From assembly GCA_964520705.1 (NCBI GenBank), contig CAZFPS010000002.1:1-50804 (forward strand): a stretch of DNA of 50,804 nt. Reading direction: 5' to 3'. Made by a program: the position numbers and the translations under genes. Under the pieces are notes generated by a model, which searched no databases, was not told the DNA's origin, and saw only the letters and a program-made list of their open reading frames with translations. Origin of the DNA: an uncultured Planctomycetia bacterium (GTDB lineage: Bacteria > Omnitrophota > Gorgyraeia > Velamenicoccales > JABMQK01). Position 1 is the first letter of the stretch. The number at the start of each line of letters is the position of its first letter. Shown piece after piece: positions 34,601-50,803 of this stretch.

Positions 34601-37600
34601 TATATGCCTCACCCGTTGCCGATAGGAGATTTTACCGTATACATTGAATCAATAGAACAACGAAGAATGGAGTATCTTTTAAACGGGAACGACAAGGAAC
34701 GTTTAGAATATTTCTTGCAGTATTATCCCTACCATAACATTATTATGCGATATCGCACCGATTATATGCGCCAGATCGCGGATTTCGTTATAGACACATA
34801 CCTTATACCTGAGGAAAATATTACTAATGTTGAAGAATTATGTTCTTCACAGTCTTTACTGTATAAATTAGCATCAGGAGAATATTTTGCTCCTGATAGA
34901 TTAAACCAGGGATTAATTAACGGGGGTTCTGCGGAAAGAATATTTGGCAGCCAAACAGTTATAGCAAAGGCTTTTGCTTGGTTATCTGAGAAACAACTTA
35001 TAGATAGCCAAGATGGGTTACGAGTTAACATTTTTACTTCTAATGGATTCATCTCTGGTTATGATGATAATGGCTTTGGTTTCGCTGAAAGCATTTTTAC
35101 AAATGAAAACCTAAGTATAGAGGAAAAAAATAGCCTTGTTTTGTTTAACCTTTTCCTGTTGTTTAAAAATAGAGAAATAACCATTAAAGGGCTTAATGGA
35201 GAGCCGATTAAGTACAGCATATATAGGGAAACAGTAGCATTGCCTACCCTTGTAAAGGAGCGGAATAATTTATATAATTTAGCATCATTTATTTCCGGAG
35301 TTGAAAAGTTAGGTGGTTCTAATGAACAAATTAGAGAATTCATAGGGTTGAGCATGACCAGTGTTACTGCATGTCCTGCTACCTCTTTAGAAGAAATATT
35401 CCAGTATCTTTCTCATTACCAGCAGAATTTTAGCCAGCCTCTATATGTTGTGCATTTGGTGAATATAAATATGCCGGCAACGATTACAAAAATTATGCAA
35501 GGGTTAACAGCTAAAGTACTTAGTTTTCCCTTCTCCGTTAACAATAGTGAATATGAGGTATTTAATCCTGTAAAATTAAAAGCTGTTATCAGCGATAGGA
35601 GAGTTTTATTGGGAATTCTTGAGGGGCATTTGACGCCTGTTCAGTTTAATAATTTGCAGGCGAGATTTGATTTGGTTCATCCTTACTTAGCGCATGCCCC
35701 TCCGGAAAAACAGGAGCTAGTTATTTATATAACCCCACGGACAAGCCAGACCGCACAAGGAAGAATTATCGCCGAATATATTAAAGACGGTATAAATTAT
35801 CCCAACGTAGTTCAGTTACACCCCATCATTTTAAATAGTAATTTAGGCGCAGAATACCTCAACCATTTCTTTATCGCTGTCCTTTTTGATGAAATCCAGT
35901 TCCACCATTTACTTGGATACGATCAGAAAAATGGGGATATACACACGTTTGGCTTTTTAGAAGCACAACCCACAATTCTAAAAGCAGTCAGCGGTAATAT
36001 TGATGCGTTAGCTAATATGGGAATTATTCCTGATCCTATATGGGGGCAAAAAATCAGTGCAGAGGGATCAAAAGTAGTTTCTGAGTCAAACTATTTTATT
36101 AAAGAATTTTATAGTAGGCTTCAAGGATTGGGGTTGCGTTTTACCTTTGCCACGCTTAGCATAGATTATGATGATATCAATGCAGATTTATCTTATGCTA
36201 CAAAAGGATTTGTAGCGCATCTAGATAAGCATATAACGGTTAACGATAAACATCCGCGTTTTGCTATTAGTATCCTTGGGTTACCCACCGGTCCCTCTGT
36301 GGGTATCGACTTGTTACAGGATTTCTTGGCTTCGATGGTGGAGGCTACGGATGCCATTGGTATCCCGATTGTCGGAGGGCATACCGTTGAAAACTCCGGT
36401 ATAATTTATACCATTGTATTCGTAGAGGTTATAGCTGAATCTAAATTACTCTTAGCGGTTCAGAAAGAAGAAGTTGCTCTTGCTCAAACTGGCAAGTGGG
36501 CATTCAATGAAGATAAGTTAATTACTACTTTCCGAGCGCAAGGGTGTGCCGCGAAATATCCCCCGGATAAACTAGATGAGATTATTAAACATGCGATAAC
36601 AAAGCTTCCATTAAATAATTTCGGTAACATACATGTTAAGGATGATGTTATTCTCTACCATCTTGATGATCAAAGTTCGATTGCTTTTACTGTTGATATT
36701 ATTAAACCCATTGTTAATTCCAGTAAGCTTTTTAGCCGCATTGCCGTGGTACATGCCACAAGCGACTTGTATGCTAAAGGCATATTTCCTGAAGGTTCAA
36801 TTGGAGTAATGTTTACGCCTGCATATATAAAGCCAGCAAGTTTAACCAATATAATACAAGGTGGAAAAGAAGAGATGTCGCGTCTTACAACTACATATCT
36901 CGGGAGTTATTCTGTACCCAACAAAGATTTATTCTATGGTGCCCTTATGTATGGCATATGCGAACGTAGTGCTTATATCAGTAATTCTACTGTTCAGGAA
37001 GGGGACTGGTTAATTCTTACGAAACCTCTAGGGTCAGGGGTTATAGCGAGCTATATGATTATGAAAGGGCTCGAGTTGAGTCCCGAAGAAATTAAGATAT
37101 ATGAGAATATGTTAAGCCACCTTATAGAGCCAAATGACAAGGCATGTTATGCAATGCGTACGATAGGCGCGCATGCTTCTACTGATGTGACTGGTTTTAG
37201 CCTCATCGGGCACCTAAATGAGATGTTGGAGTTGACTGGCTTAGGAGCAGAATTGTGGTTTAATAACATCCCATTTTTACGCAGCGCAGAACAGTTTTAT
37301 TCAGGGGCATTTTCGTGTAGCGTAAACCGTAATATGCATTATTTCTCGGATCTTGTTGAAATCTCCAGAAATGTAGATAGCTATGCTAATGCTGGAAGAA
37401 TAGCTTTGTTGTATGATGCGCAGACCTCTGGAGGCATGCTTATTTCCGCTAGTCCAGAACAGGCGCGAAGGATAATGGAGATCCTTGATAATAATGATAT
37501 AGAAGGTGCGGTTATTGGCCGGGTAACTTCACGCCTTGAACGACCTATCAGAATAGTAGAGAAACCTGATTGTTATATTCCGATTATTTCTTCTTGCGCA

Positions 37601-40600
37601 GAGAAAAAAGGCATGGATTCATCTATTACCTCCAGCTCGCCGGTTGAGAATAGATCCAGCAGTCTGATAAATCTGGAACTTGGTTTACCTATTGCTATAG
37701 TGTCTTCTGCTATAGATGTGAAAGCATTCTCATTAACAGAGGCACTTCATGATATCAAAAATAAGTTTATTGCTGTCAATGGGTTCATGTCTCTTTTTAC
37801 TAGGAAAATGCCCGGGCCAGAAAATGAGTCGTTGATTGTCTTCATGGAATTAGGAGTAAGATTTGAAGATTATCTCAAGAATTATCTTAAAGGAAAGCTG
37901 GGAAGCGAAGTAACATTAGAATATTTGCAGAATAATTTAATGGCGTTTATTGACGCAAGAACGCAACTGGAGAAATGGTTCGCCTTGAATAGGAACAAAC
38001 TGGATACGCGTTCACTAAAGTGGGTAAGTATGGTTATCGAAGATTCCGGAAAAACAATTGATTCTATTCTGTCGCTTTCCTATGTTTGGATGGGGCATTC
38101 CATGAGAGACGCTGATATTATTAAAGAGATAATCGGTTTTTCTGTAGAAAAGTTTAGGCACTTACATCCTAAAACAATTATAAACGTTTATATGGAAAAC
38201 GTGCCGACTACTCCAGTATTTATTTATGCCGATATTTTGAGAGCTGCTTTAGATGAAGCTCTTTATAATGCGTGGAAATACGGCGATAGAATACAAATTG
38301 CTTTAAATGTAAGAGTCATCAAAGGCAATGAATTAGAAGTTAAAGTTTCAAGTTTTGGTGAAGTTTTATCAAGCGAAACCTTGGCAAGAATATTCTTACC
38401 TAGAGAGCGGGGAGAAGCGGTAGAGGCTATTGAAGGCTCGGGTATTGGTTTAGCAGCCATTAAAAGGAATTGTGATCTTATTGGCGGCAAGGCAGTTTTT
38501 GCTAGTACTAGCAATCAAGAAAATATCCTCACTTTAACCACGCCCATGAATGCATCACTGCATACACTGCCTTTTATCAGTCATGTTAGCCCGCATAATC
38601 TTCTTATTGTAATTTCCGGGCTTGCTGGTTCAGGGAGGCGGGTTTCTGCGCGTGCTTTGGCCGGCCGTCTAGGTCTTAGATACATTAATGCCGGATTTTT
38701 GATGAGAGTTTTATTCTATTTCCTTGTGAAGGATAATCCCGGAATTTCCTTAAAAGACGAAGCCACTATTTCACGGTATTTAATTAATTTCTTTCAAGAT
38801 AACAGGATTATCTGGGAAGAGCCTTTAATTATTGACGGTATTAATAGCGCTAAAAGAGGAAATGACGGTACATCTTTGCGGGTAAAAATTAAGTTGGAAG
38901 TCGCTAATCGTATTGAAATGTTTGATGCCTTTGCAAATTTAGATTTTGTGAAAGCAATTCTTCAGAGTCAATTGAACAGAATTGTAGAATATCTTATGCA
39001 TGGATATGCATATAGTGGAATAGTTATTAGGTCTACTGAGCCTTGGCTTGAAGCCGACCTGAATATTATGTTAGATGCGGATACGGAAGTTAGGGGTATC
39101 CGCTTAGGAGAAATCCTTGAAGTAGTTGATAAGCGGGATAAAGAAACAGGAAGGGTTGATTTTGGGCCGCAGCAATTTCCGGAAATTACCGGCATCGAAG
39201 TCATACATAATGACAATATGTCGGCCAGGGATGTTGTAGACAGGATTATTGAATTAATTACGATGTTAAGAAAAGATGTGGAGCAGTTTAATAAGTTAAT
39301 GAATGAATGGACGCTTTTGTATTACAGCAAAGACATGCATACTATTAGGAAGGTTGTTATAGAAGAGATAAAGGATAATTATGGTCAATTATATTTATCC
39401 TTCGGGATGAATCCGTCTTGTATGTTGGAAGATGCGCTGTCTTATTTCGATGATCTCATTCGGGCTATGCCTGATAAGTTTGAGACATACAAAGATAATT
39501 ATAAGGCTGTTCTTGAGAAAGAAAGTCTAGAGCGAGAACGAATAGAACAAGAAGCCGCAAGAATTTATACTTTGTTGTCAAGGCGGAAACAGGAATATTT
39601 AAAGAGAGAATACCTTGTTTTCTTCTCTAAGAATAACCTTGGTTTAGGTCGCTCCAGCTCGCCGGTGGAGGCGAGGGCGCCAAAGGATATTCTTAAGGAT
39701 ATCCTTAAGGCGAGGCAGGAAGCGTATGAGTATTCACGGGAATTATTGAGCCATCAGCAGGATACACCTGCGGTCGGGCCGAATGCTTATAAGGCTATTT
39801 ATAAGGATTCTTTGATGGCGCTTGAGGCAGCGCGGGCTTACTTACAGGAACTCTTAAATTGTCCGCAAGATATATCTTTACAGCTAAAGCAGCTGGATGA
39901 ATTAGGTTTATTGGCTGAACTTCAGTCATCTCAAACCCCGAGTAAAGAGGCCAGCTCGCCGGCGGAAGAGAGGATTGCCGCTTCGACTTATACAAAATAT
40001 AAGATAATTATAACTAGCCGCTTAGGCTTGCATACAAGAGTAGCGGTAGGAATAGCAAAGATAGTTAACGAATCAAATGCCAGTGTAACTATTTATAAAG
40101 GAGATAACAAGGCTAATGCCGAATCTATTATGCAACTTTTGGCACTTGCTGCTGGTTATGGGGATTCTGTAGTAATAGAAGTTAGAGGTAATGAGACATT
40201 GGGTATAGCTAAAAGTATTGAGAGGTTGATTGCAAATGAAGCATTCGCAATCGAAAGTAGAGAGAGTACCGATAGAACAAATATACAAATCAAAGCTTTC
40301 GATAATGGTAGAGCTAATATCATAGTGAAATTCTATAATATAAAAACAAATGTATATGGTTATGCAGAAGGCAGCCATTTTATGGGAAATCGTATTTCCG
40401 AAAATATAAACGCAGGTCCGAAATTATTAAAAGAAAATATACCGGATTTAGAATTTGAAGTGACAAAAGAAGCGGAAGAGGTTTGGGATCATGCAGGCGG
40501 AACAGCTTTCTATGAGAATGTAACTATTCTTTGCCCGGTAAATAGAGTTAATGAAGTAGTAAGGACTATTACTGCTATTTTAGATATTAATGTAAAAGAA

Positions 40601-43600
40601 AAATCCAGCAGCCCGATACATCAAGCTTATAAAGAGAGAAATCAGTCTTTAGCTTCGCGTCTTGCAAAAATATCATTTATCCCCGCGGTTTGTATTGTTA
40701 TTTCCTGGTTTTCAGGTGATTTATATATTTCTTCCGTAAAGGCCTCTTTTTTGAGTGGATTAGCTATAGCTGGTATCGTGGGAGGTATAGCACGGGGTTG
40801 TGGGAGCTTTATTAGTCAGACGATAAGAAGGGAAGATGTTGATTGGGTTAAGGTGAGGCGCTGGATAATTGCAGGTGTAGCATTCAATGGGTTGATAGGT
40901 TTTGGTCTATGGTTTTGGTTCCAAGCCAACTTTATAAGTAGCAATTTATTAAAAGTGTTAATTGATTTAACTGCCTATACCATAATCGTAGTTTTACCTA
41001 TAAATTTCTTAATCCAGAAATATTTTATCTACAGAGAGGATAAAGCAAAAGTAAATTGGGAGAAAACCCTGAAAGATTTTATGCGTATTTATACCTTTAG
41101 CACTTTGTATTGGGGACCCGCTTTATTTATTGGATGGACCTTCTGGCCTGAAAAAATTGTACTTATTGCCGCAAATATGACAGTAATCTGGAGCGGGATA
41201 TTAATATATTTGTTAGATTTATGGATAAGTAAAATGCAGGTAAGCAGAAACGCGTCTCTCAATAATAATAGATCCTCTAGCTCACCGGTTGAAGTTAAAG
41301 ATATTACCTCCTTTATCCAGGGTGAAATTTATAAACTCGCGAAATTTATTTCTAAAGTCGGTCTTAAGTATGACCCAGAAGGCTTTGGCTACATTACTTT
41401 TGAAGAGGATGGCGAAGGAAGGGCTCCCAGGTTTGGCGAAGAAATGAATACAGCATTAAAATCAATAGATAAGTTTGTCGAACGCCATTATGGGGAAAAC
41501 TTTGAATCATTCCAGAATCCAGTTATTATCTCTGGTATAGGCATAGGCGGTCAGACTACCTGCGCGGTTCCGGCCTTGGGTTTTGTCGTAAAACACGGAA
41601 ACAGATTATTATATGTATGCGATTCTTTTGGGACTGATTACCGGGCCTTAGAAGAAAAGTGGCTGCAGGCCTTAAGAGATAATCCAAAAACAAAAATTCT
41701 CTGGGTAGTGGGTTCAAAATCCGGCAGTACTGATGAGACTATGGTTAACTTCCAGATGAATCTGAAGACGATGATCAGGATCTGGTCAAGGTTTATATAT
41801 GGAGACAAGGAAGTGGATAAAATCACAGAAGGGCTTTTTGTTAAATTATTTGATGGAAAGCCGCTCTCTGAGAAAAGATTCGCCAGCCTTAATCTAACTA
41901 CGGAGCAACTTCAAATTCTGCGGATTGTGTTTAAGAATTTGATTATTGTTACGGGTAGTAAGGAATCGGGTTCCAGATTAGCAGGATTGAAAGTCTTATT
42001 TGATGAACTTTATGATAAGGAAGAAGATAAAGTTATTTCAATTACTATGCTTAATAATCTAGGCGGAAGGTTCCAGGGCTTAAGCCCTAATTCCTTTATC
42101 TATAATGCGCTTTTAGGCATGAATGTAAGAGCCATGCTTGAGGTAGCCAGAGAGGTAGCTATTCTGCAAAGGACAGAATCTGTTTATAGGTCAAAAAAAG
42201 AGGCTATAAATCTATGGCTTAGCAAAGTACAGCATTTATTGATCGCTGTACCCAATGACATTATCTTTGGTCGTCTAGCAGAAGCCTTGGGCCAGATGGT
42301 TCCGGAGAGCACTGGTAAGGGAAGAAGAGCGAAAACACCGGTAGGCATACAGACTTATGCCTATGACTCAGCGGTAATAAATAAAGCTTTTAAGGATATC
42401 AAGCCAGCCGATAAAGCTTACTTAGTATTGGATATTAAAGGAAATGAACCCATAAAACTGGATAAAGAGATTGGAAGCAACAATTTGATTATCCGGTATG
42501 AGCTACAAGAAATATCCGAAACGGAATTAGCTAAATTAGTCCAATTTCTAGAAGATGTAACGGCAAACTTCGGTATATTTAATACTGCCAGGGCACTCTT
42601 GGATAAGTACGCTGAATTAGGCAGTCCGCAATCAGTAGATTTATTTAAGGAAGAGTCAATTATAAAGATTATGTTTACACCTAATGAAAAAGACCCTAAA
42701 TACGCGGCTTTAGATGGTGCGCATAAAGGACTAAATGGAGTTTTTAATGACATAACTCCTTTCCGTCAGCCGGATGTGGAATTTGCCAAAGAATTAGTCA
42801 AGGGTGGATTAGGTGTTAAACAATTCAATGATGCCGGGAATACGGATGAAAATAAACTTCCTGTAAGAGATGAGAAGCAAAGAGATTTAGCTTATAAAGA
42901 AGATAGCTTAAAAGTATCTCAGGGCGCAGTTTTAGACTTGAGTACCCTGGTTCTAAAAGTAAACAATAACCAAGAATATCAAATAGGCGCTCAGGCAGGA
43001 GCGACCCTCTTGCAGATTCTTGAAAGATTGCCTTACCAGTCCCGCGCGCCCAATACCAATAACAAAAAAGACGCAATCATTACACTTATTGATGAATTAG
43101 AATCCCTGCAGAAAGAAATCCTACGAACAGGCATGCCAATAGATTCCTACCAGGATATAGAGGCCCTTAAGAATAGAAGAAATGAATTCTTTGATAATAT
43201 CATAAGGCTCGCATCAGATACTCCATTAACTAGCCAGGAAGAAGAAACAGCTAAGCAGTTAGCTGTTTTAATGCTTAAAGCCCACAAGGATGCTAAGAGT
43301 CTGAATTTTGTGCTCTATGAAGATAGAAACATCCTTACTGAGATTATTAAGAAATTTGCCGATTTCTTAGGCCTTGACCGTTTTGATTTTGGCCCCGCAG
43401 AGCAGCACAAATCTTTCCAGCTTACATCAGGCGGTATAGATGTATCAACAGAGGTGCTTATCCAGTCTGTAAAAGATTTAAAAAAGGTGCAAAATACCGA
43501 AGAGCCCATTATCTATGATGGATGCGTACCTAATTATCTCCATGGTTTATATCCTTCTGAAGTTGGAACCATATACTTAAGGGCTTATACCAAGAGGTTT

Positions 43601-46600
43601 AGCGAAGTTCGGACCGAGGCAGTAGTGTTGATGGCTAAAGATTTAACCGAAAAAGAAAACATAGCCAGCCTGATGGTTTTATTTACTAGGATGATGGAGG
43701 TTTATAGAGGAGTAAACTCCAGCTCGCCGGTTGAGGAAAAAAGAAGTGCTTTCGATTCTTTGATTGTTTGTATGGATAAATATACTCGAAATTATTTATT
43801 CAATGTCTTAACCCTTGGTGTGATGGCCGGGATATTCTTAGGATTAGGTTTATATCCTGAAAAAATAGCCAGCGGACAAGCCAGCGGTTATTTGAATATA
43901 TGGCTAGAGGCAGTCAGGACGACTATTTTTAATATAGAGGTTTTGTGGAAGACATTCGTTGGGTTTTTTGTTTTTGGGGTCATGACGGATTATTTAGCCA
44001 AGCGTACTAATAGAGAGGAGTATTCTTGGAAGGCCTTTAAAGGGGCCACAATGTATGCCTTATTGAAGTTTCTTATTGTGCCGGCATTCTTTATCGCGAT
44101 TGCTCCGTTTAATAAATTTGTGCGTGGTTTTATTTCAGGGCTCTTGCTTAGTTACCTTCTTTTAAATATCCGGGCAAAGACATTTTATACCAAGCATCAG
44201 AACGGAAATGCGGGAGTGTTAAAGACCCAGCGCGCATATGAGATGTATTGGTTGACGCGCCTATGGATTTTTGGACAGAACTTTATTGTGCAAATTCTCT
44301 TTCCCATTGAACGTAGGGCGTTAGCAAATGTTATTATTTCGCAGTTACATTCCTTATATAACAGTTATGGGTTGCATGAACAGAAGGCTTCGCTGATTGA
44401 AAGACAAGATTTAATGGAGTCAATTAGACGGTCACTCTTTATAAAATGGCTCAGGAATGTCCAAAACGGCATAGAAGGTTTAACATCCGTTAAGCTTGGT
44501 AGGCCATGGGATAATTCGGCAGCGCTGTTGGTACATGGTCTTGTTGCGCCGTTCACTTTATTAGCAAATAAATTGAATGCAAGGCTACGGATTGCACGTA
44601 TTTCCAGGCTGGGAGAGAAAGATGAAGGTACCGCCAATTTTAGCATTAGTTCCATCCCAGAGGTAATCAAAGATTTAAAGCAAGGCAGGATGATTATTAT
44701 AGTTGATGATGCAAATCGTGAGAATGAGGGCGATCTTATGATTGCCGCCCAGAAGATTACTCCTGAGGCAATCACTTTTATGGCTAAAGAGGCAAGCGGG
44801 CTTATCTGTATGCCTATGGAGGCTAAGAGATTGGATGAGTTAAAGATTGGGCTGATGTTTAAGGGGAGCGGTGACAAGCAGGGAACCGGGTTTACGGTTT
44901 CTGTTGATGCCAGAGAAGGGACCACTACCGGCATCTCTGCCTCTGATCGCGCTCAGACAGCTAAGGTTTTGATTAATCCAGCAACTAAGCCTGAAGACTT
45001 AAACCGTCCCGGACACATGTTTCCTCTGCGGGCCAGAGAGGGAGGGGTGTTGGAAAGAGCCGGACATACCGAGGCCTCAGTTACTTTAGCAAAATTAGCC
45101 GGCCTTTATCCGGCAGCGGTAATCTGTGAAATTATGAACGAAGATGGGACTATGGCTCGCCTGCCGCAGCTGGTGGAGTTCTCCAAAAAGTATAATCTAA
45201 AGATTGCTACTATAGCTGATTTAATTAAATATGTATCCGGCGCCACTTCTAGCTCACCGGTTGATAAAGACAAGAAGAATATAGAACCGTCCCCGATTTT
45301 ACAAGATTCTAAAAAGTTCTCTGTTCCGCTTACTCGGCTGATCGGAGAGTTGCAGAAAGAGCGCGCGATGGTTTGTTCTATCCAGTCGCGGTGGGAGCCG
45401 GCAGTAGCGGTAACAATTTTCGGAAGCGCGCGTATTTCTGAAGAAGATCCTTACTACCAAATCGGCGTTAATTTGGGAAGAGCTATATATAACCACGGTA
45501 TGGTTATTCGCACAGGCGCAGGCCCGGGAATGATGGATGCGCCATTCAGGGGGTATATAGAAGCCAGGGAATCTTCGGGCGTAGAAAAAACAGAAGAAAA
45601 TGCAACTCAAGGCGTAAGAATCACTCTTCCTTTTGAACAAGAAGCTTCTCCTTACTGCGAAGATATCCTGACATATTCTCACTTTATTAACCGTAAATTA
45701 GCTCTTTGTGAAAATATTATAGGAACTATTGTTTTGCCGGGCGGCTTTGGTACGATAGATGAATTATTCGAGAGTTTGCTTAGAGGCGTGCCGACAGTTC
45801 TTTTAGTCAAAAGTTACTGGCAGCCGATTATGGATGCTTTTGAGGAGAGTTGGGCGAGGGGCTCTTTACAGAAGAATATCGGACTGCGGTTTTTAATTAC
45901 AGATTCTATCGGAGAGGCCTTAGCGCACATCAAGAGTAACGCGCAGAATATTGAACTTATTAAGCCCGACCAAAATAAACTGGGGCAGGACAATAAGGAG
46001 ATTGAAGAAGGCCTGTTGCGGCTTAAGGGTTTACCGCCGACAGTTACCTTTGTCGGCCGGCCAGGAGAAGATTACTTTGGATTAGATATTGTTGGAGAAA
46101 TAGCCTTCCGCCTCTTGTCCTATGGTATCGCTATTCGTACAGCCAGCCGCGATGTATTATTCAAGCGGCTTTTAAAAACTACTCAGGATAATCATAAACT
46201 TAATTTACTGCAAGCTACTATTTTCTTGCCGGAAAAAGATATTCCTCTGACCGTAGAAGAACTAAGTTTAGGCAGGAATCTTATAGTTATCCAGGATATC
46301 TTTAACCATCAGGTTTTGATCACTGAAAATTCTTTGGGTTTTGTGTTTCTGCCCGGCGGGATAGGCACATTAAATAAATTATTTGATATACTCTGCGTAA
46401 TGCAGACGGGAAAAGTGTCCCGTAGGCCCATTGTGCTCATCGGTGGGGAATTCTGGCAGCCCATAAAGGATGCCATTGTAAATGCTACTCTATTTCGCTC
46501 GCCACCTTTGATTTCCGCGGGAGATGAGAACTTAATGCGTATTGTTGATACAACAGAACAGGCTTTGGAGATTTTAGGATTAGAACAGATTGCTAGTTCG

Positions 46601-49600
46601 CCGGTAGATCAAGGTATTGAGTCTCAAGATTTAGGAGAGTTAGGGTATATCGTTAGAAACATTCTAAGATATAAAAGAGCAAAGGCTGTAAAAGAAGATA
46701 AAAAAGGAAGATTGAATGCGCCTCAGCTTTTAGTAATAGCAATGTCCTTGTCGGTTATACTTAATAAAGAATATAAGCTAATTGAAGATATTGTTTTTAA
46801 AGAATACAGCCGTTTGTTGGATGAAGGAAAATCTGGATCAAGTCCTATACGGGCTTATCCTTTGAATGTCCCGGCGGCCGAGCAGAAAGAGGCATCAGTT
46901 AAATTTGGAGCGGATTTATTTGTCAGGTTATCTTTTATTCTCTATGGCAACAATTATGAAATAACTTTAAGCGAAGGACAAATGCACAAGGAGTGGGAAG
47001 AGGATTTAAGGGATTTAGCCTATAATTTATCTTCAAAGATTCGCGGCCCTCCTAGAAAACTTACCTTTTACATTTCTACTGATATAGAATTTACCGATTA
47101 CAGCGTTGCCGTAAGATTAACCGCAACCCACATAGTCCTGCACCCGTATTTCTTTAATCTATTCTCTGACTGTAAAAAGATCTGGCAGACTGAAATAATC
47201 CTAGATCTGCTGAATAAAAAATCAAAATCTTCATCTCCTCTGGGCTCCATAGTCAACACCTTTACCTCCAGCTCCCCCATCCAGCATCAGCTCGTCATCG
47301 ACCTTGTTTCTAATCAAATCATTCAGCGGCCTTCGGTTACCGGCAAGCGCATCTTGCGTAAAGAAGGCATTAGCGAAGGTATGGTTCTTGAGGGTATTGC
47401 TAACGGAACACTCAAGCTAATCTCTGAAAAAGCTTTTATCGAATCTTTAGATAGGTCTACTACCGGTATTGGTATCTCAGGCGGCGGCGACTGCGCCGGT
47501 ATAGCTGACTTCTTCCGTTCTTTAAGGTATAATCTAAAACCTGAATTAACCATGCTCGGTGTCAGGAATGCCGGTGAAGGCTTAATGGATAAAGACTTCT
47601 TAAGCAAGCTAATCTTAGTTGACCCTCTTTTAGCTGAAGACTTCCTCGGCCAATCCTCTACTCCCTACGGCTCTTCCCGCGAAGATCCTTTAAAAAAGAA
47701 TAAAGAAACCACGCAAAGGAATCTCTCCGGTTTTAAATTCTTCTATGGCACCGGCGGTAATGATCATTTAGGCCTCTTAGAGCGCTTCTCTCGATTGCTT
47801 CCAGAATTAGTGGTAGTAGGGACTTTTAAAAGTATTGATGGTGATGGTTGGGTTGCCGGCAGGCCTGCTCAGATGCTGGGTTTTTACACTGCAACCGGAG
47901 TTTACCAAAGGCAGCTTTGGGCAATTACCCAGAACGCCTATACTCATCAGCAGCGGCATGTGGTTGAGACTTTTGGCCGGGGTTGCGGCAAACTTGCCTA
48001 TGCTTCAAGCCGCAGATATCCAGAGAATTTTAATACACTCTCCAAAGAAGAGCAGCGTAAAATTATTGAATTCCGCGACCTGGTAATGATTATCGTTCCT
48101 GAAAAACCTACTTCTTTGCGTTCCATTGCCCAGGAAGCCAAAAGGATTAAGCAAGAACAGGGTGGAGTAGTGGTGGTAGTAGCCGAGGGTTTTATGCCTC
48201 CAGAATTAAAATCAGAGATCATCAGGCTTGGTTTAGATGAATCATTAAGAGACCGCTGGTTCAGGCATGACCTTCCTGTTGAAAGTATCTCTAGCCTTAT
48301 CCACAAAGAAGGAAGAGAGTCTCCGACTGATGACTTAAGTCTCATGCTTCAAGATCCGGAATTAGCTGCTCAATTTGCCAAGACCACCTGGCAGGCTAAA
48401 TTTGACCCCCATGGCAATGTCACTAAACTCGCTGGAATCACAAACTTCATCATCAAGGCCTTAGAAGTATTGGGCGGCGCTACTAAAGTCAACAGAGTCC
48501 TCTTTAATTACGGAGCCAGAGACGCTACCCCGGATGCTTATGATATTCATATGGGGGAAAAGATCGGTGTTGTCGCAGCGCAGCTTATTAATGACAATGT
48601 CATTGGCGGTAAAGCCGTAGTTTATTTTGAAGGGATGAATCCTAAAGAAGAAGAGCCTGAAGTTGTAGACTTAGTAGGTGTATCCGATAAGAACAACCTG
48701 AATAATCCGGACCTTTATACTGAAGAAGAATTAATTAAGAATGGAGTGTATTGGGAGAAAAAGACCAGCTCACCGGTAGTTCGAGATAACGCAGAGATGC
48801 TACAACTAATCTTTAATTTATTTAATTATTTTGACTGTCAGAATAAAATTCTTAGGCAACAGGTTTTATCTTTAAATAGGCCATTGAGTTTAGATGGGGA
48901 AGAGCCTGGTTACCTCGGGTATATTCCTTATGCTTATTATTATACTGATATTTTATATCTTATCTGGCGGTATTCCTCTTATCTAAATAAACAGCAAGAG
49001 ATAAAGGCCTTGGAGATTGGTTCAGGCGCAGGATGGTTCCTGTTGTTCCTTAAGGCCTTAAAAGAAAAGCCTCTAAAAGATAATCTGCGGCTGGAAGAAT
49101 TCCAGAAAAAGTTAATGAATATGGAATACGATAGATGGTTTAAAAAATTAAAAAGGCTGCTAGAAAATATGGAGTTTGAGGGGATTGATATTAATCTATA
49201 TCTTTGCCGCTTTGCCCAATGGAGAGGATTAAATGTATTAAATGCCGATATCTTGAATCCTCCTGTTTTAGATCATTACGACCTTACTTTTAGTGAAAAT
49301 GTATTAGATCTTTTGCAGGTTAATGGAAAGTTGTTTAAGCCCTATAACCCCGAAGCCAGCTTTGAATTAGGGAAAGAAGCATTGGTGAGGATCAGCCAAT
49401 TGACTAAGGCTGGAGGCTTAAGCATCCATACTTCTGATTTTGGCTTTCCTCTTAGAAGGGAAAGTATTAAAGAGTCTGGTTTTGAAATTTTAGAAGGCGA
49501 TCCGGCAGGAAGGATTCTTGTACTTCGTAAGGGTTACTCCAGCTCACCGGCGGAAAGAGATTTATCTTCGGCGATAAGCGTCTTCTCTAGTGTCTACTCC

Positions 49601-50803
49601 ATCTATGACAATGCTTTTGCCTACAAGATAAAAACAGATACGGTATTTTCCTACTCTGAATCTGTGAGTGGCGGGAGGCAGGTTAACGAGAGGTTTGGCA
49701 AAATACAAGGGTTTACCGGAAGAAATATAGAGGCCAATTTTTTCTATAATGCGTTTTTTCAGCGGGAGAGGAAGCTTTTTAAATTCCCGTTCGCCGGCAG
49801 GAGCAAACTCAACTTTGGTAAGCATAGCAAGATTCAGGACAGCCCTAATTTATGCTTAATTTTATCAAAGGACACCAACCCCAGCGTTTGGGCCTCCACA
49901 ATGCCTTTCTTTAATCTTAAGGCTAGCTTAGGGTTAATCGGCAGGCGTTCTTCAATTCCATCAATAAGCCAGCCAACAGGATTATGGAAGACGTACTCTT
50001 TAGCGGGAGCGGATTCCTCAAATTTAGCGTCAAACGCGCAGAGGAGATCCCATAGGGAGCCCGTATCAAAGATAAAATATTTAGGGGCGCCGTTTTTATC
50101 CACAACTGCCGCAGCCTTAAAATTCTTAAGTTCCGATTTCTTAAATTCTTTAGGAATAGCCGCAAATTTCTCAATGGGCTCTACTTTGACAAGTTCTTTA
50201 ACTGATAACTTAACTAATGATTTTGATCTCATTTTTTCGCTCCCCTCTATTTTTAAGCAGTATAACACATTCTTTTTTAATCTGTCAAGCCCGATATCGT
50301 TAACGAATACACCTGATTCTTTACTGGCAAAGTCAACCTGCTTCAGCTTGACGGTACGAGGCATGGCTGATAGTGGGTTTTTATTTTTACCTTTGCGGAA
50401 AGCGCTTTCGTTGTATAGCCATATTTTACGTAATCCCAAACGCACTAGCTCTCCGGTGGAGGCGAGGACGTCAGAAGATATTCTTAAGGATATTCTTAAG
50501 GCGAGGCAGAGAGCGCATGAGTACTCACAGGAATTATTGAGTCACCAGCAGGATACGCCTGCGGCCGGGCCGAATGCTTATAAAGTTATCCATAAGGATT
50601 CTTTGAGAGCGCTTGAGGCAGCGCGGGCTTACTTACAGGAACTTTTAAATTGTCCGCAAGATATATCTTTACAGCTAAAGCAGCTGGATGAATTAGGCTT
50701 ATTGGTTGAACTTTACTCATCCCAAACCCCGAAGAAAGAAGCCAGCTCGCCGGTAGGTAAAGAGGCGATTGCCGAGATGATGCTGCGAGAAGACGTAAGA
50801 GGA
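2..50803 (+). CDS. Single giant multi-enzyme ORF, open at both window edges (16,934 codons); chain of ~40 enzyme-like modules separated by SSSP[V/I/A] linkers
   Basis: Frame-2 translation read end to end shows no TAA/TAG/TGA. Every recognisable catalytic motif in the window lies in this frame: HAD DxDG, GT2 DAD/QCGFK, Nudix box, HxHxQ, ROK DxGGT, PGI SKSGxTDET, PFK, RibB, LOG PGGxGT, HPr GLHTR. The supplied ORF track lists no + strand frame-2 ORF ending inside the window, as expected if the frame never closes. Confidence 0.9.
1700..2300 (+). other. HEAT/PBS-lyase-like helical repeat region
   Basis: Helical repeats such as ..YWNVRKFAAQQFEEM.. and ..ITDRAIKALIILLDDPYANTEAAKALQKLEW.. resemble HEAT_2-type repeats. 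Pattern recognition only. Confidence 0.35.
5100..5715 (+). other. HD-superfamily metal-dependent phosphohydrolase-like domain
   Basis: ..MFEHSLMGIKAL.. then MLMLLHDIGKAVTTGQHLSLGKEL..FLVLNHS..MIVGDIAG. This gives the H..HD..H..D arrangement. The HD dyad codons are at 5444-5449. Confidence 0.55.
7798..8340 (+). other. Conserved domain of unknown function preceding GT2 (copy 1)
   Basis: ..SQAFQLVINDIFAHAALYKEGKDKWAVFADRAEKYFKYHPEE..CYLTLLRIN... Closely similar at nucleotide level to 13922-14458. Confidence 0.5.
8351..9240 (+). other. GT-A fold family-2 glycosyltransferase domain (DPM1/ALG5/GpgS-like), copy 1
   Basis: IKIAVIVGMHKEKSRL..NPNGEDS..IDWELIFVAHVNSPDNSGKVV..LYTDADVTVD (DAD near 8729-8740)..ETQCGYKAY (9011-9025)..FSFDTELMHL. 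Confidence 0.7.
9413..11290 (+). other. Large conserved module (copy 1): nucleotide-sugar-enzyme-like N-half and hexapeptide (left-handed beta-helix-like) repeats near the C-terminus
   Basis: ..RIAVFHDAGSAKRCSTLSQSQNGTRADLRILG.. resembles the G-rich loop of NTP-transferases. ..ISGIYIRNSIIRNSTIKEGNIINSVVSDSLIAKL.. has 6-residue periodicity. The family is not identified with certainty. Confidence 0.35.
11291..12049 (+). other. HAD-IA beta-phosphoglucomutase-like domain, subtype A, copy 1
   Basis: [26 protein letters not shown] (motif I); [12 protein letters not shown] (II); GKPDPDIF (III); LEDAVKGVKA (IV). Confidence 0.75.
12113..12880 (+). other. HAD-IA beta-phosphoglucomutase-like domain, subtype B, copy 1
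   Basis: [57 protein letters not shown]. Confidence 0.75.
12893..13702 (+). other. HAD-IA beta-phosphoglucomutase-like domain, subtype A, copy 2
   Basis: [71 protein letters not shown]. Confidence 0.75.
13922..14458 (+). other. Conserved domain of unknown function preceding GT2 (copy 2)
   Basis: ..SQAFQLVINDIFAHAALYKEGKDKWAVFADRAEKYFKYHPEE..CYLTLIRIN... Paralogue of 7798-8340. Confidence 0.5.
14459..15350 (+). other. GT-A fold family-2 glycosyltransferase domain, copy 2
   Basis: KIKISVIVGMHKEKSRL..NPDGEDS..IDWEFIFVAHVNSPDNSGKVV..LYTDADTTVD (14846-14857)..ETQCGFKAY (15122-15136)..FAFDTELMSL. Confidence 0.7.
15524..17338 (+). other. Large conserved module (copy 2) with hexapeptide-repeat-like C-terminal part
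   Basis: Paralogue of 9413-11290: ..RIAVFHDAGSAKRCSPLSQSQNGTRADLRILG.. and ..IGNVYLKNSIVTNSNITEGNVINSVISDSVITKL... The stretch 16101-16210 is almost identical to 10041-10150. Confidence 0.35.
17339..18160 (+). other. HAD-IA beta-phosphoglucomutase-like domain, subtype B, copy 2
   Basis: [57 protein letters not shown]. Confidence 0.75.
18161..18988 (+). other. HAD-IA beta-phosphoglucomutase-like domain, subtype B, copy 3
   Basis: [56 protein letters not shown]. Confidence 0.75.
19150..19960 (+). other. GT-A fold family-2 glycosyltransferase domain, third, more divergent type
   Basis: KIKVWVVFAVYNELSRI..NPHGEDA..LDWRLVMVDNRSPDKTSEV..GYTDCDITT (19526-19540)..DTQCGFKFF (19741-19756)..WAFDTEWLLL. 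Confidence 0.7.
20264..20620 (+). other. Nudix hydrolase domain
   Basis: GAVSKGEKAIAAGMREFGEELGI at 20450-20518 fits the Nudix box GX5EX7REUXEEXGU exactly. Upstream is ..HHASAYVIVKAPSGKIYLQLRG... Confidence 0.75.
21152..22144 (+). other. HIT-superfamily, GalT/Ap4A-phosphorylase-branch nucleotidyltransferase-like domain
   Basis: CILC at 21461-21472; ..VVNKIPWATYHMLLMS..; ..ASIPHFHLQFF with H-x-H-x-Q at 21704-21718. Confidence 0.55.
22352..23155 (+). other. HAD-IA beta-phosphoglucomutase-like domain, subtype A, copy 3
   Basis: [71 protein letters not shown]. Confidence 0.75.
23156..24108 (+). repeat. Direct repeat copy 1 (953 bp), apparently identical to 25121-26073
   Basis: Same sequence at an offset of 1965 nt. 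The shadow ORFs 23464-23706 and 25429-25671 translate identically. The repeat starts at tcctcctcccccata and ends at tcatcgcctgt. Confidence 0.85.
23168..24097 (+). other. HAD-IA beta-phosphoglucomutase-like domain, subtype C (long cap insertion), copy 1
   Basis: [57 protein letters not shown]. Confidence 0.7.
24690..25060 (+). other. GHKL / HATPase_c-like ATPase domain (no DHp His seen upstream; anti-sigma-type Ser kinase-like)
   Basis: IHEIFSNAVKHGNS (N-box-like); ISDEGRS; LRGAGLGIYKAG (G2-like); GTEVTIVKYL. Confidence 0.55.
25121..26073 (+). repeat. Direct repeat copy 2 (953 bp), apparently identical to 23156-24108
   Basis: See copy 1. Bounded by SSSPI (25121-25135) and GSSPV (26063-26074). 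Confidence 0.85.
25133..26062 (+). other. HAD-IA beta-phosphoglucomutase-like domain, subtype C, copy 2
   Basis: Amino-acid sequence identical to 23168-24097. Confidence 0.7.
28140..28760 (+). other. Uridine kinase / phosphoribulokinase-family P-loop kinase domain
   Basis: RVIIGFMGPSSAGKTTFVKML (Walker A, 28161-28200); LGLDSYLHD; ILIMDITCLG; RLQRRLERDTR. Confidence 0.6.
28829..29590 (+). other. HAD-IA beta-phosphoglucomutase-like domain, divergent subtype A, copy 4
   Basis: [57 protein letters not shown]. Confidence 0.65.
30205..31030 (+). other. HAD-IIB (phosphomannomutase / Cof-type phosphatase-like) domain
   Basis: VVIADMDETLTPSRS (DxDxT); VILSSSD; GGTTSIDIGLINAKGNAI; YFGDSFDLSGNDTPV. 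Confidence 0.6.
31097..32060 (+). other. ROK-family sugar kinase (glucokinase-like) domain
   Basis: MLAIGVDLGGTKISAAAV; GIGIAAPGILD; YDATAAALGEAVFG; YMSIGTGIGSGII; MLGGGV. Confidence 0.7.
32591..33540 (+). other. Second ASKHA/ROK-like sugar-kinase-fold domain (divergent)
   Basis: LFIGINIGSTYTRCSVI; GIGIGTVGMV; MDNKVAALGERFGIG; LGTAMAGKMI; AVAIGAAYMA. Confidence 0.5.
34360..34800 (+). other. Udk/PRK-like fold with degenerate Walker A (possible pseudokinase)
   Basis: VIVRIDGRPGNRKSHSISLL replaces GxxGxGK[ST]. It is followed by YKVILVEGTII and FTVYIESIEQRRMEYL, matching the layout of 28140-28760. Confidence 0.35.
36250..36440 (+). other. PurM/AIR-synthase-superfamily N-domain-like fragment
   Basis: ISILGLPTGPSVGIDLLQDFLASMVEATDAIGIPIVGGHTVEN. 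Confidence 0.3.
36500..37560 (+). other. Selenophosphate synthetase (SelD)-like PurM-superfamily domain
   Basis: FRAQGCAAKYPP (Cys codon 36545-36547); DDQSSIAFTVDIIKPIVNSSKLFSRIAVVHATSDLYAKG; ASTDVTGFSLIGHL; DAQTSGGMLIS. Confidence 0.6.
37700..38520 (+). other. Histidine-kinase core (DHp-like H-box plus HATPase_c), no sensor domain evident
   Basis: LTEALHDIKNKFIAVNGFMSLF (His codon 37748-37750); LDEALYNAWKYG; IEGSGIGLAAIKRNCDLIGG. Confidence 0.55.
38600..39260 (+). other. Cytidylate kinase-like domain with altered P-loop
   Basis: [36 protein letters not shown] follows the Cmk N-terminal pattern, but GSGRR replaces GSGK[ST]. Confidence 0.45.
39665..39961 (+). repeat. 99-aa helical module, copy 1 (paralogue of 50456-50752)
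   Basis: VEARAPKDILKDILKARQEAYEYSRELLSHQQDTPAVGPNAYK..LQELLNCPQDISLQLKQLDELGLLAEL... Bounded by SSSPV and ASSPA. Confidence 0.8.
39992..40240 (+). other. HPr (phosphocarrier protein)-like domain
   Basis: KIIITSRLGLHTRVAVGIAKIV (His codon 40031-40033); ANAESIMQLLALAAGYGDSVVIEVRG (Ser46-like site). Confidence 0.65.
40616..41287 (+). other. Integral-membrane module, about 6 predicted TM helices
   Basis: Hydrophobic ~20-aa stretches: ISFIPAVCIVISWFSG, FLSGLAIAGIVGGIA, WIIAGVAFNGLIGFGLWFWF, LIDLTAYTIIVVLPINFLI, LYWGPALFIGWTFW, IVLIAANMTVIWSGILIYLLDLWI. Confidence 0.6.
41330..43700 (+). other. pgi: Glucose-6-phosphate isomerase (SIS/PGI) domain with large insertions
   Basis: ISGIGIGGQT; WVVGSKSGSTDETMVNF (41711-41740); GPAEQHKSFQLTSGG (about 43398-43440). 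Confidence 0.65.
43790..44310 (+). other. Second integral-membrane module, about 4-5 predicted TM helices
   Basis: FNVLTLGVMAGIFLGLGLY, FVGFFVFGVMTDYL, ALLKFLIVPAFFIAIAPF, FISGLLLSYLLLNI, LWIFGQNFIVQILFPI. Confidence 0.55.
44650..45235 (+). other. ribB: 3,4-dihydroxy-2-butanone-4-phosphate synthase (RibB) domain
   Basis: [117 protein letters not shown]. Confidence 0.85.
45400..45950 (+). other. LOG-family (TIGR00730-type) domain 1
   Basis: VTIFGSARI; GMVIRTGAGPGMMDA; IVLPGGFGTIDELFE (PGGxGTxxE, 45737-45775). Confidence 0.7.
46035..46580 (+). other. LOG-family domain 2 (more divergent)
   Basis: GFVFLPGGIGTLNKLFD; RRPIVLIGGEFWQPI. Confidence 0.55.
47330..48740 (+). other. pfk: 6-phosphofructokinase (PfkA-family) domain
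   Basis: GIGISGGGDCAGIADF; FFYGTGGNDHLG (47747-); VVGTFKSIDGDG; ETFGRGCGKLA; VVVVAEG. Order and spacing match the PfkA motifs. The phosphoryl donor (ATP or PPi) cannot be called. Confidence 0.65.
48900..49520 (+). other. Class I SAM-dependent methyltransferase domain
   Basis: ALEIGSGAGWFLLFL (motif I, 49010-); FEGIDINLY; YDLTFSENVLDLL; LTKAGGLSIHTS. Confidence 0.55.
49562..49825 (-). CDS. RelE/ParE-family type II toxin, antisense inside the giant ORF
   Basis: 87-aa ORF. ..EREFKKLPLPLKKRIIEKI..THRFRVGKYRICFYLVGKSIVIDGVDTREDAY fits the RelE/ParE pattern (RvGdYRiiY..v.hR.eaY). It starts 8 nt after the partner ORF. The + strand turns pyrimidine-rich here, unlike the rest of the window. Confidence 0.75.
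   Translation of the reverse strand: MLTKVEFAPAGEREFKKLPLPLKKRIIEKIGLYISSGKPLYFAKPLVNLPPATHRFRVGKYRICFYLVGKSIVIDGVDTREDAYRRR
49834..50232 (-). CDS. Putative cognate antitoxin (132 aa, Phd/YefM-like core)
   Basis: ATG at 50232 is preceded by GGGGAG (7-nt spacer) and a sigma70-like promoter. ..KNFKAAAVVDKNGAPKYFIFDTGSLWDLL.. resembles the Phd/YefM core. It lies directly upstream of the toxin in the usual operon order. Confidence 0.6.
   Translation of the reverse strand: MRSKSLVKLSVKELVKVEPIEKFAAIPKEFKKSELKNFKAAAVVDKNGAPKYFIFDTGSLWDLLCAFDAKFEESAPAKEYVFHNPVGWLIDGIEERLPINPKLALRLKKGIVEAQTLGLVSFDKIKHKLGLS
50240..50245 (-). promoter_or_regulatory. Shine-Dalgarno site for the antitoxin
   Basis: The minus strand reads GGGGAGcgaaaaaATG. 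Confidence 0.6.
50259..50288 (-). promoter_or_regulatory. Sigma70-type promoter driving the antisense toxin-antitoxin operon
   Basis: The minus strand reads cTTGACAgattaaaaaagaatgTGtTATACTgc. The -35 TTGACA is at 50283-50288, the spacer is 18 nt, and the extended -10 TGnTATACT has its -10 at 50259-50264. Confidence 0.6.
50456..50752 (+). repeat. 99-aa helical module, copy 2 (paralogue of 39665-39961)
   Basis: VEARTSEDILKDILKARQRAHEYSQELLSHQQDTPAAGPNAYK..LQELLNCPQDISLQLKQLDELGLLVEL... Roughly nine in ten nucleotides match copy 1 by eye. Confidence 0.8.

Follow-up and report, generated by a model that had tools for sequence, protein, structure and literature searches.

Results

Organization of the antisense gene pair

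The stretch analyzed here, referred to below as the window, comprises positions 1 to 50,804 of contig CAZFPS010000002.1 (GenBank assembly GCA_964520705.1), and its plus strand carries one giant open reading frame (ORF) at 2..50803 that is open throughout and built of modules separated by SSSP[VIA] linkers. Near its right end, a slot bounded by two linkers carries on the minus strand a compact gene pair with the layout of a type II toxin-antitoxin (TA) operon, namely, antitoxin first, short gap and common promoter. This TA cassette, the giant ORF that houses it and the relatives of both are the subject of the present study. The slot was first described by a model from the letters of the DNA (the sequence-only reading), which placed the left linker, SSSPAE, at 49538, where it is indeed found (49538..49555, plus strand; DNA TCC AGC TCA CCG GCG GAA). 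The right linker, TSSPVE, occupies 50444..50461 (plus strand; DNA ACT AGC TCT CCG GTG GAG) and does not begin at 50447, as originally given, which is the first serine of SSPVE; the linkers are separated by 296 codons and not by approximately 297, with 302 codons from linker start to linker start. The DNA of the two linkers forms a direct repeat flanking the slot, AGCTCTCCGGTGGA (50447-50460) and AGCTCACCGGCGGA (49541-49554) being equal at 12 of 14 positions.

The putative antitoxin gene (49834..50232, minus strand) encodes 132 aa from its ATG, followed by a stop, and would encode 203 aa if begun at the upstream GTG at 50445. Behind an intergenic spacer of 8 nt from the antitoxin stop to the toxin start (49826..49833, minus strand), the length of which is kept across the close clade, follows the toxin gene (49562..49825, minus strand), with 87 aa, a TAA stop and a predicted RelE fold. 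A Shine-Dalgarno-like GAGGGGAG (50240..50247, minus strand) is located 7 nt before the antitoxin ATG, and a purine-rich block is kept at this position in the cassette alignment. The near-consensus sigma-70-type promoter that had been read at 50259-50288, together with a Shine-Dalgarno site, is present on the minus strand: TTGACA (50288-50283) is followed by an 18-nt spacer and TG-n-TATACT ending at 50259, with 11 of 12 consensus positions matched, and the -35 and extended -10 elements are conserved among cassettes in unrelated contexts. A terminator-like site 3' of the toxin was sought, and none was seen. The Rfam scan of the window found no RNA family, and a contig look-up found no called-gene record for the exact 87-aa toxin.

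The nucleotide similarity between the window and other loci is confined to 49553-50309; the shared mobile cassette is placed at 49557..50309 (minus strand, ~750 bp) and ends with the toxin stop codon on one side and ~15-20 nt upstream of the -35 element on the other. The toxin stop (49562-49564) is separated from the left linker by 6 nt, half the distance originally stated (12 nt). On the opposite side, a slot-specific spacer of 134 nt (50310..50443) leads from the cassette to the right linker and is open in the host frame; neither this spacer nor the upstream extension of the minus-strand ORF (GTG 50445) has similarity to any fetched locus.

In the host frame, the slot (49556..50443, plus strand) reads as a stop-free "shadow" peptide of 296 codons that is rich in S, L and F, and the initial observation that the giant frame passes over the gene pair as low-complexity sequence without a frame-2 stop was thus confirmed. 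Read antisense, each toxin codon coincides exactly with a host codon, and the codons of the antitoxin are shifted by one base. The composition of the slot peptide resembles that of the reverse reading of a real gene, and elsewhere in the window it is the minus-strand ORFs that show such a composition. When host codon usage was compared on both strands in a sliding manner, the minus frame exceeded the plus frame at one place only, 49862-50491. No match to the slot peptide was obtained in Pfam and NCBIfam searches, nor in a collection of 5.8 billion proteins at E <= 1e-3; the latter result may reflect either host ORFs that are not called as proteins or a low-complexity bias that lowers the score. 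Gene callers seem to resolve such loci inconsistently, and embedded cassettes and their giant hosts are probably under-represented in protein databases.

Identity of the two proteins

The 87-aa protein has 53 database relatives with 47-80% identity, mostly 86-87 aa in length, several of which carry the name RelE/ParE in NCBI or JGI together with an assignment to Omnitrophota. Taken singly, neither the 87-aa nor the 132-aa protein of the window matched Pfam or NCBIfam, and toxin homology was therefore set by family profiles and the predicted fold. A phmmer search of the PDB with the window toxin alone recovered Mycobacterium tuberculosis RelG (3g5o, E = 0.0018). A profile of 28 family members recovered the same structure at 2.6e-7, together with Thermus thermophilus RelE (2khe, 1.6e-6) and a further RelE (9g12, 1e-3), and PF05016 matches 21 of these 28 members. 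The best nine Foldseek matches in the PDB to the AlphaFold2 (AF2) model of the toxin (predicted local distance difference test, pLDDT, 82.3; predicted template modeling score, pTM, 0.70) were all RelE (TM 0.67-0.78), and ParE structures scored below RelE. The earlier assignment to RelE/ParE-like toxins therefore holds by family profile and fold, although not by single-protein Pfam or NCBIfam searches, and on these predictions the 87-aa protein is a member of the RelE/ParE superfamily that is closest to RelE. In the family alignment, R55, R57, R62, R80 and Y84 are invariant, a set of residues that we take to be compatible with RelE-type active sites.

For the 132-aa protein, 57 relatives were found, all of which are annotated as hypothetical and none of which has a Pfam domain. 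It is regarded as the antitoxin partner because of its constant position directly upstream of the toxin and its co-conservation with it. In 72 of the 72 loci that contain this region, the gene directly preceding the toxin is an antitoxin homologue; in the close relatives, gene order and spacing are kept in 17 of 19, with antitoxins of 131-137 aa, toxins of 87 aa, an 8-nt gap and a conserved frame relation. It is by position and co-conservation only that the antitoxin-like character first ascribed to this ORF is upheld, since no known antitoxin family or fold corresponds to it. Its secondary-structure elements follow the order strand, helix, strand, strand and long helix, which would be in keeping with a Phd/YefM-like N-terminal domain but does not demonstrate one.

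Selection on the two strands

These data raise the question of which strand of the slot is under selection. Eighteen close cassettes were compared, and the ratio of nonsynonymous to synonymous substitution rates (dN/dS) was calculated by the Nei-Gojobori method (NG86). The mean pairwise differences at minus-strand codon positions 1, 2 and 3 were 0.275, 0.145 and 0.566 in the toxin and 0.288, 0.178 and 0.546 in the antitoxin, and the own-frame dN/dS values were 0.12 and 0.085, respectively. These substitution patterns indicate that the minus-strand proteins are under purifying selection. In the host frame, dN/dS was 0.99 over the toxin, which is codon-aligned antisense, and 0.24 over the antitoxin, where the third positions coincide; values of 0.96 and 0.26 were obtained when each relative frame was read in the respective other gene, in which the host frame is a different one. 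Such equality between the host frame and its non-host equivalents makes it possible to conclude that the plus-frame peptide has no amino-acid constraint of its own.

The absence of stops from this frame is a different matter. Synonymous recoding of both window genes with host codon usage introduced a mean of 5.7 host-frame stops (P(0) = 3.5e-4), and permutation of the cassette's own synonymous codons a mean of 4.5 (P(0) = 5e-4); the other two antisense frames over the cassette contain 20 and 18 stops. Over the toxin, a host-frame stop can arise only from the toxin codons TTA, CTA and TCA. Among the leucine and serine codons of the toxins in 32 embedded cassettes, these three are found in 0 of 367 cases, compared with 195 of 712 (27%) in the antitoxins of the same 32 cassettes, where they do no harm, and with 67 of 249 in free-standing toxins (Fisher 1.6e-40 and 1e-29, respectively, with counts uncorrected for shared ancestry). 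Because synonymous sites are saturated (dS ~1.6-2.1), this avoidance of stops is maintained and not merely inherited. All 32 embedded cassettes have the same relative frame open and the same antitoxin-toxin frame offset, whereas free-standing relatives vary in offset. Judging from this codon usage, the stop-free host frame across the cassette is kept by selection, in agreement with the constraint on the host frame that had been suspected from the window.

Recurrence of the cassette at other loci

Toxin-profile scans of genome and metagenome collections yielded 68 loci, and look-ups of three homologues added five more; fetched loci carrying cassette relatives are designated below by L-numbers. 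More than 15 other loci share the cassette at 67-87% nucleotide identity and have unrelated flanks. Since only the cassette is common to these loci, it represents a discrete mobile unit, and as linkers also adjoin it in other giant ORFs, the idea of a cassette dropped into a linker-bounded slot gained support. In 35 of 58 non-identical copies, one antisense frame is stop-free across both genes, and the rest have 1-11 stops. The host ORF exceeds 1,200 codons in 16 of the 35 open-frame copies, window included; among the fetched loci it reaches more than 6,750 codons, and it often continues beyond the contig end.

The closest relative is L006, whose toxin is 90% identical to that of the window and whose cassette is 87% identical at the nucleotide level; the L006 cassette lies among different modules, with an identical 18-nt CGCTCCAGCTCGCCGGCG on both sides of the slot. 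The window and L006 have one other clear module in common, at a different distance, and their neighbourhoods are therefore not orthologous; the module order differs even between these close relatives.

In the toxin tree, intein-borne and giant-ORF copies are interleaved, and the free-standing copies L001, L040 and L002 (1-4 host-frame stops) are nested among embedded ones. The stops in these nested copies match what would be expected if constraint was relaxed once the host ORF had been lost. The sister of L001 is L009; its flanks hold intein motif fragments only, with no Pfam intein match, and on these fragments L009 looks like an intein remnant. The free-standing copy in L002 (L002:1-11204, on a contig shared with L014) has 4 host-frame stops and is located directly after the stop of an opposite-strand gene of 3,269 aa containing HEAT domains and before another gene there; the locus may represent either a giant ORF that broke apart where a slot once lay or a TA pair of the usual intergenic kind. 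In L003 (107-2962), the cassette has taken the place of the inner part of a small gene: a paralogue of the upstream 664-aa gene is left with its beginning (MKKNES...) on one side and its final part (...DIYNTGIVYVYDNKNVSIEAAP, followed by the stop) on the other, and the 282-codon frame across the cassette is open.

Inteins and giant ORFs as host sites

The Pfam family PF14890 (Intein_splicing) spans the insert in L007, L008, L010, L024, L027 and L028 (E = 1e-14 to 1e-25); in L035, L041, L055, L060, L068 and L070 it extends across the insert or matches its flanks (2e-8 to 4e-16), and a weak match was seen in L039; six of the PF14890 matches are below the Pfam gathering score, those in L041, L055 and L070 just under the cut-off. 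Intein motifs are recognizable in the flanks, with a block-B-like T..NHPYL upstream and a C-terminal ...HNF.ANG...AHN, then T, downstream. Matches and motifs together place the cassette mid-intein, between the N- and C-terminal splicing regions, in at least 12 loci. In the usual anatomy of an intein, this place between the two splicing regions is that of the homing-endonuclease domain. The hosts of these inteins include surface-type proteins of Patescibacteria and Elusimicrobia. The window copy does not belong to this group, as the slot and its flanks gave no Intein or Hint match in Pfam and the flanking sequence consists of SSSPAE on the left and TSSPVE on the right.

Giant ORFs free of inteins carry the cassette in the window and in L006, L012, L013, L015, L016, L017 and L032. 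Linkers are strongly enriched in these intein-free ORFs, SSP[AVIL] occurring 13-31 times against ~0.5 expected; other linker motifs are GARL in L017 (16 against 0.2 expected) and AAP[AV]G in L012 (4 against 0.0). The distance from a linker to the cassette that follows it is 3-12 residues in L006, L012, L016 and L017, compared with 2 residues in the window.

The giant ORF of the window and its linkers

Frame 2 of the plus strand is without stops over nt 2-50803 (16,934 codons) and runs off both ends of the window, which has a G+C content of 40%; in all other frames of both strands there is no open stretch of 300 codons or more. Along the giant ORF, Pfam detects many HAD hydrolase domains, along with ROK, PRK, AIRS (AIR-synthase-related), cytidylate kinase, HPr and DHBP synthase domains, as well as LOG/lysine-decarboxylase-like, PFK, NUDIX, HATPase_c and HEAT domains, that is, unrelated small-molecule and signalling modules. 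The Archaeovorin giant proteins of Omnitrophota combine HEAT_2, HATPase_c, NUDIX, Lysine_decarbox and HAD_2 (West-Roberts et al., bioRxiv 10.1101/2023.11.21.568195), and the host ORF, with the same domain mix and the same scale (at least 16,934 codons), belongs among the Archaeovorin-type giant genes. The closest cassette relatives are in metagenome-assembled genomes of Omnitrophota, and it is from these relatives only that we draw the Omnitrophota assignment.

The linker motif SSP[AVILG] occurs 35 times in the window ORF, compared with ~1 expected, and the stricter [ST]SSP[AV][ED] 10 times; examples among the 35 sites are those at 37631, 39653, 43718, 49538 and 50444. One subclass has the common DNA TCY AGC TCR CCG GYN GAR. 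Rare codons are over-used in the linkers (TCG 31% against a background of 7%, CCG 43% against 21%), which hints at a DNA- or RNA-level constraint or at a recent common origin. In the 5' half of the window, the codons of many linkers are quite different.

Traces of module duplication were observed along the ORF. The 99-aa module that follows the slot (TSSPVEARTSEDILKDI...EASSPVG, 50444-50740) is paralogous to the module at 39653-39952 (SSSPVEARAPKDILKDI...EASSPAE), and both are bounded by the same linker DNA motif. Farther upstream, identical 80-aa minus-strand shadow ORFs at 23464-23706 and 25429-25671 are 1,965 nt apart, as are the identical linker contexts "ktiieefkkkQGSSPV" at 24098 and 26063, which indicates a recent tandem duplication of ~2 kb comprising HAD-containing modules.

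Other antisense genes in related giant ORFs

Long host ORFs in related loci were scanned for contrasts in codon usage, and the candidates were checked with Pfam. On the minus strand of L006 (4326-5708), in a stop-free ORF of 6,752 codons (L006:2-20257), we identified PIN_3 (6.8e-18) and PIN (4e-4) genes, which occupy adjacent slots, with SSSPAE between them and SSSPVE and SSPL at the ends. The L015 ORF at 6197-20248 (at least 4,684 codons) contains an antisense gene for a retropepsin-like aspartyl protease (10706-11104) and an antisense pair of DUF433 and DUF5615/PIN-like genes (18602-19187; 4.5e-19 and 4.2e-15). Both of these cargos are bracketed by the same direct repeats, D3 (10367-10491 and 18446-18570) and D4 (11102-11190 and 19247-19335), each pair being 90% identical. 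A retropepsin-like gene is also located just upstream of the TA cassette of L032 (9101-9499), in a stop-free frame. In L013, a second, distant ParE_toxin gene (~14136-14384; PF05016, 2.7e-10) with its own upstream small ORF is antisense in an open frame of 3,114 codons (10920-20261) that adjoins the frame of the main cassette, and a similar second copy in L008 (5241-5489) lies over an open antisense frame of 261 codons. On these sequence matches, other TA types (PIN, DUF433/DUF5615, ParE) are embedded in related giant ORFs in the same manner.

Discussion

A probable toxin-antitoxin cassette adapted to life inside genes

The results support the view that the pair is a type II TA module with an unclassified antitoxin and that its way of life inside genes has not been described before. 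We consider it likely that the slot is a type II TA cassette with its own promoter, in which a putative antitoxin precedes a predicted mRNA interferase of RelE fold, and that it belongs to a lineage adapted to antisense life inside long genes as a selfish addiction element. In extension of the sequence-only reading, which concerned a single slot, this lifestyle recurs across the whole cassette family and includes residence in inteins, with other TA types alongside.

How could an operon persist inside a gene that is read in the opposite direction? Purifying selection acting through the host gene would hold one antisense frame stop-free, and host ribosomes would then read straight through the cassette. 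The read-through would yield ~250-300 residues of unconstrained filler rich in S, L and F, and the cassette would survive only where such filler is harmless, namely, mid-intein or in an inter-module linker of an Omnitrophota giant ORF. In an intein, the filler would leave the protein with the intein on splicing; in a giant ORF, filler located at a linker might be removed if the linkers are cleavage sites. Loss of the segment would free the stable toxin, so that both the cassette and its carrier, whether an intein or a recombination-prone modular stretch, would be guarded against deletion or replacement. The cassette itself may have spread by recombination at its flanks or together with them.

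Several points weigh against this interpretation. The promoter call is a consensus match only, and the stabilizing or addictive role of the pair is suggested by analogy. The antitoxin family profile found no match in the PDB, nor did Pfam over the family alignment, and Foldseek detected no fold match (E > 0.3) to the AF2 model of the antitoxin (pLDDT 69). The cassette was found to contain neither a recombinase nor terminal repeats nor any other apparatus for mobility. The shared ancestry of the cassettes enters the codon counts given above. Finally, as the window has no intein, the filler of ~296 aa would remain part of the giant protein if cleavage does not occur at the SSSP[VA]E linkers.

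Alternative explanations

The cassette could instead be domesticated and serve its host, antisense transcription or RNA pairing coupling the expression of the giant gene to the toxin, or the pair acting in abortive-infection defence; the open frame would then be the price of housing it. The promoter faces the direction of transcription of the giant gene, transcripts would overlap extensively given that no terminator-like site follows the toxin, and the several TA types in related giant ORFs could reflect recruitment. However, the same cassette is found in unrelated hosts, such as the inteins of Patescibacteria and Elusimicrobia, and at non-orthologous places in giant ORFs, for which a selfish mobile element is the better explanation, and we regard domestication as rather unlikely.

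A similarly low probability is assigned to a second alternative, according to which the giant ORF is an in-frame cassette array comparable to a chromosomal integron, the linker DNA AGCTCNCCGGYGGA (SSP[VA]E) is a recombination site and the TA pair was inserted in inverted orientation. The linker is duplicated around the slot, at 12 of 14 nt in the window and as the identical 18 nt in L006, which, together with the bias toward TCG and CCG in the linkers, is compatible with recombination at linker DNA; over-use of these codons suggests a constraint at the DNA level. Two different cargos within the same direct-repeat pair in L015, two PIN cassettes in adjacent linker-bounded slots in L006 and the variable module order between close relatives fit the same picture. 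Against it, the different codons of many 5'-half linkers show that conservation is partly at the protein level, the identity of linkers could stem from recent duplication or gene conversion, and the intein-borne copies lack such linkers. No integrase or recombinase was seen in the fetched loci, with no search beyond those.

That the plus strand encodes a functional domain of the giant protein, in dual coding or with the minus-strand ORFs as mere shadow ORFs, is very improbable. It would account for the open frame and for the 74% identity of the shadow peptide between the window and L006, but this similarity is imposed by the conserved minus-strand genes, the host-frame dN/dS being equal to that of the same relative frame elsewhere. 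Variability peaks at minus-strand third positions in both genes despite their different host offsets, and only here does the minus frame surpass the plus frame in host codon usage. Moreover, the minus-strand proteins are also encoded by free-standing genes, opposite which stops are present; the slot peptide, for its part, has neither a Pfam match nor a relative in protein databases. Least probable of all is a recent neutral or mildly harmful insertion that is open by luck, or an assembly artefact: nothing specific speaks in its favour apart from the window being a single sequence without coverage information, and it is contradicted by P(0 stops) of ~4e-4 per cassette, by at least 30 independently assembled, diverged copies that are always in the same relative frame, and by the flanking 6 nt and 134 nt, which likewise keep the frame and contain no stop. 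Stop statistics, recurrence and dN/dS thus led to the rejection of chance, of an assembly artefact and of a genuine plus-strand domain.

Relation to known systems

In literature searches, including full text, no account of TA genes lying antisense within ORFs or inteins was found, in agreement with the initial claim that no TA module embedded antisense in a coding frame had been described. The addiction cassette proposed here nevertheless shares features with several known systems. As in RelBE-type operons (PF05016), the antitoxin comes first, the gap is short, the promoter is sigma-70-like and the 87-aa toxin has a RelE fold; unlike in these operons, no relationship of the antitoxin to RelB, Phd/YefM, ParD or any other known antitoxin could be detected, and the pair lies antisense inside a coding frame that shapes its codon choice. 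With homing-endonuclease inteins it shares the mid-intein place (at least 12 related loci) and the presumed rescue of the host protein, the insert being translated through and then spliced out. The endonuclease, however, is a sense-strand part of the intein polypeptide, whereas the cassette consists of two opposite-strand genes with filler as their sense reading; its persistence would be due to addiction and not to homing, and the window copy is not in an intein at all.

In chromosomal integron arrays, such as the superintegrons of Vibrio, TA cassettes with their own promoters are located between attC sites, with an integrase nearby, and are presumed to stabilize the array. The cassette studied here is likewise an own-promoter TA, and a presumed stabilizer, among unrelated modules separated by a repeated junction; the difference is that the array is a single continuous ORF, in which the junctions (SSSP[VA]E) are translated and the opposite frame is kept open, and no attC structure was identified, with no search aimed at one. 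A long open frame opposite real genes is also typical of shadow ORFs and antisense overlapping genes, but in the present case the "shadow" is part of a real giant gene, is selected to be open and spans two genes in two relative frames.

With regard to the giant genes themselves, neither the Archaeovorin paper nor a 2026 Omnitrophota preprint mentions antisense genes, inteins or linker motifs. Cleavage of the Omnitrophota giant proteins has been raised as a possibility, with the cleavage points stated to be unknown (bioRxiv 10.1101/2023.11.21.568195). The linker motifs flanking the slot are the first candidate processing or recombination junctions for these proteins.

A broader and more speculative proposal is that giant Omnitrophota genes are in-frame arrays of exchangeable modules, in which the linker (SSSP[VA]E, AGCTCNCCGGYGGA) is both recombination junction and processing site. 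Such arrays, along with inteins, might have been colonized by a guild of addiction cassettes with stop-free antisense frames (RelE, ParE, PIN, DUF433/DUF5615), which would take the place of the homing endonuclease, the intein persisting by addiction. We put this forward tentatively, as it is possible but on balance doubtful.

Implications

In practical terms, gene callers would split giant ORFs at such slots or overlook the embedded genes. The codon usage of genes on one strand directly reveals selection that originates from the other. If the proposed lifestyle is true, a TA module parasitises the interior of a gene without destroying the gene, by means of an opposite frame that the host ribosome can cross. 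Addiction modules would thereby gain a niche of a new kind, and nested selfish elements would include a new type, an operon within an intein within a gene. The same lifestyle might also explain how inteins without an endonuclease and giant modular genes prone to deletion persist.

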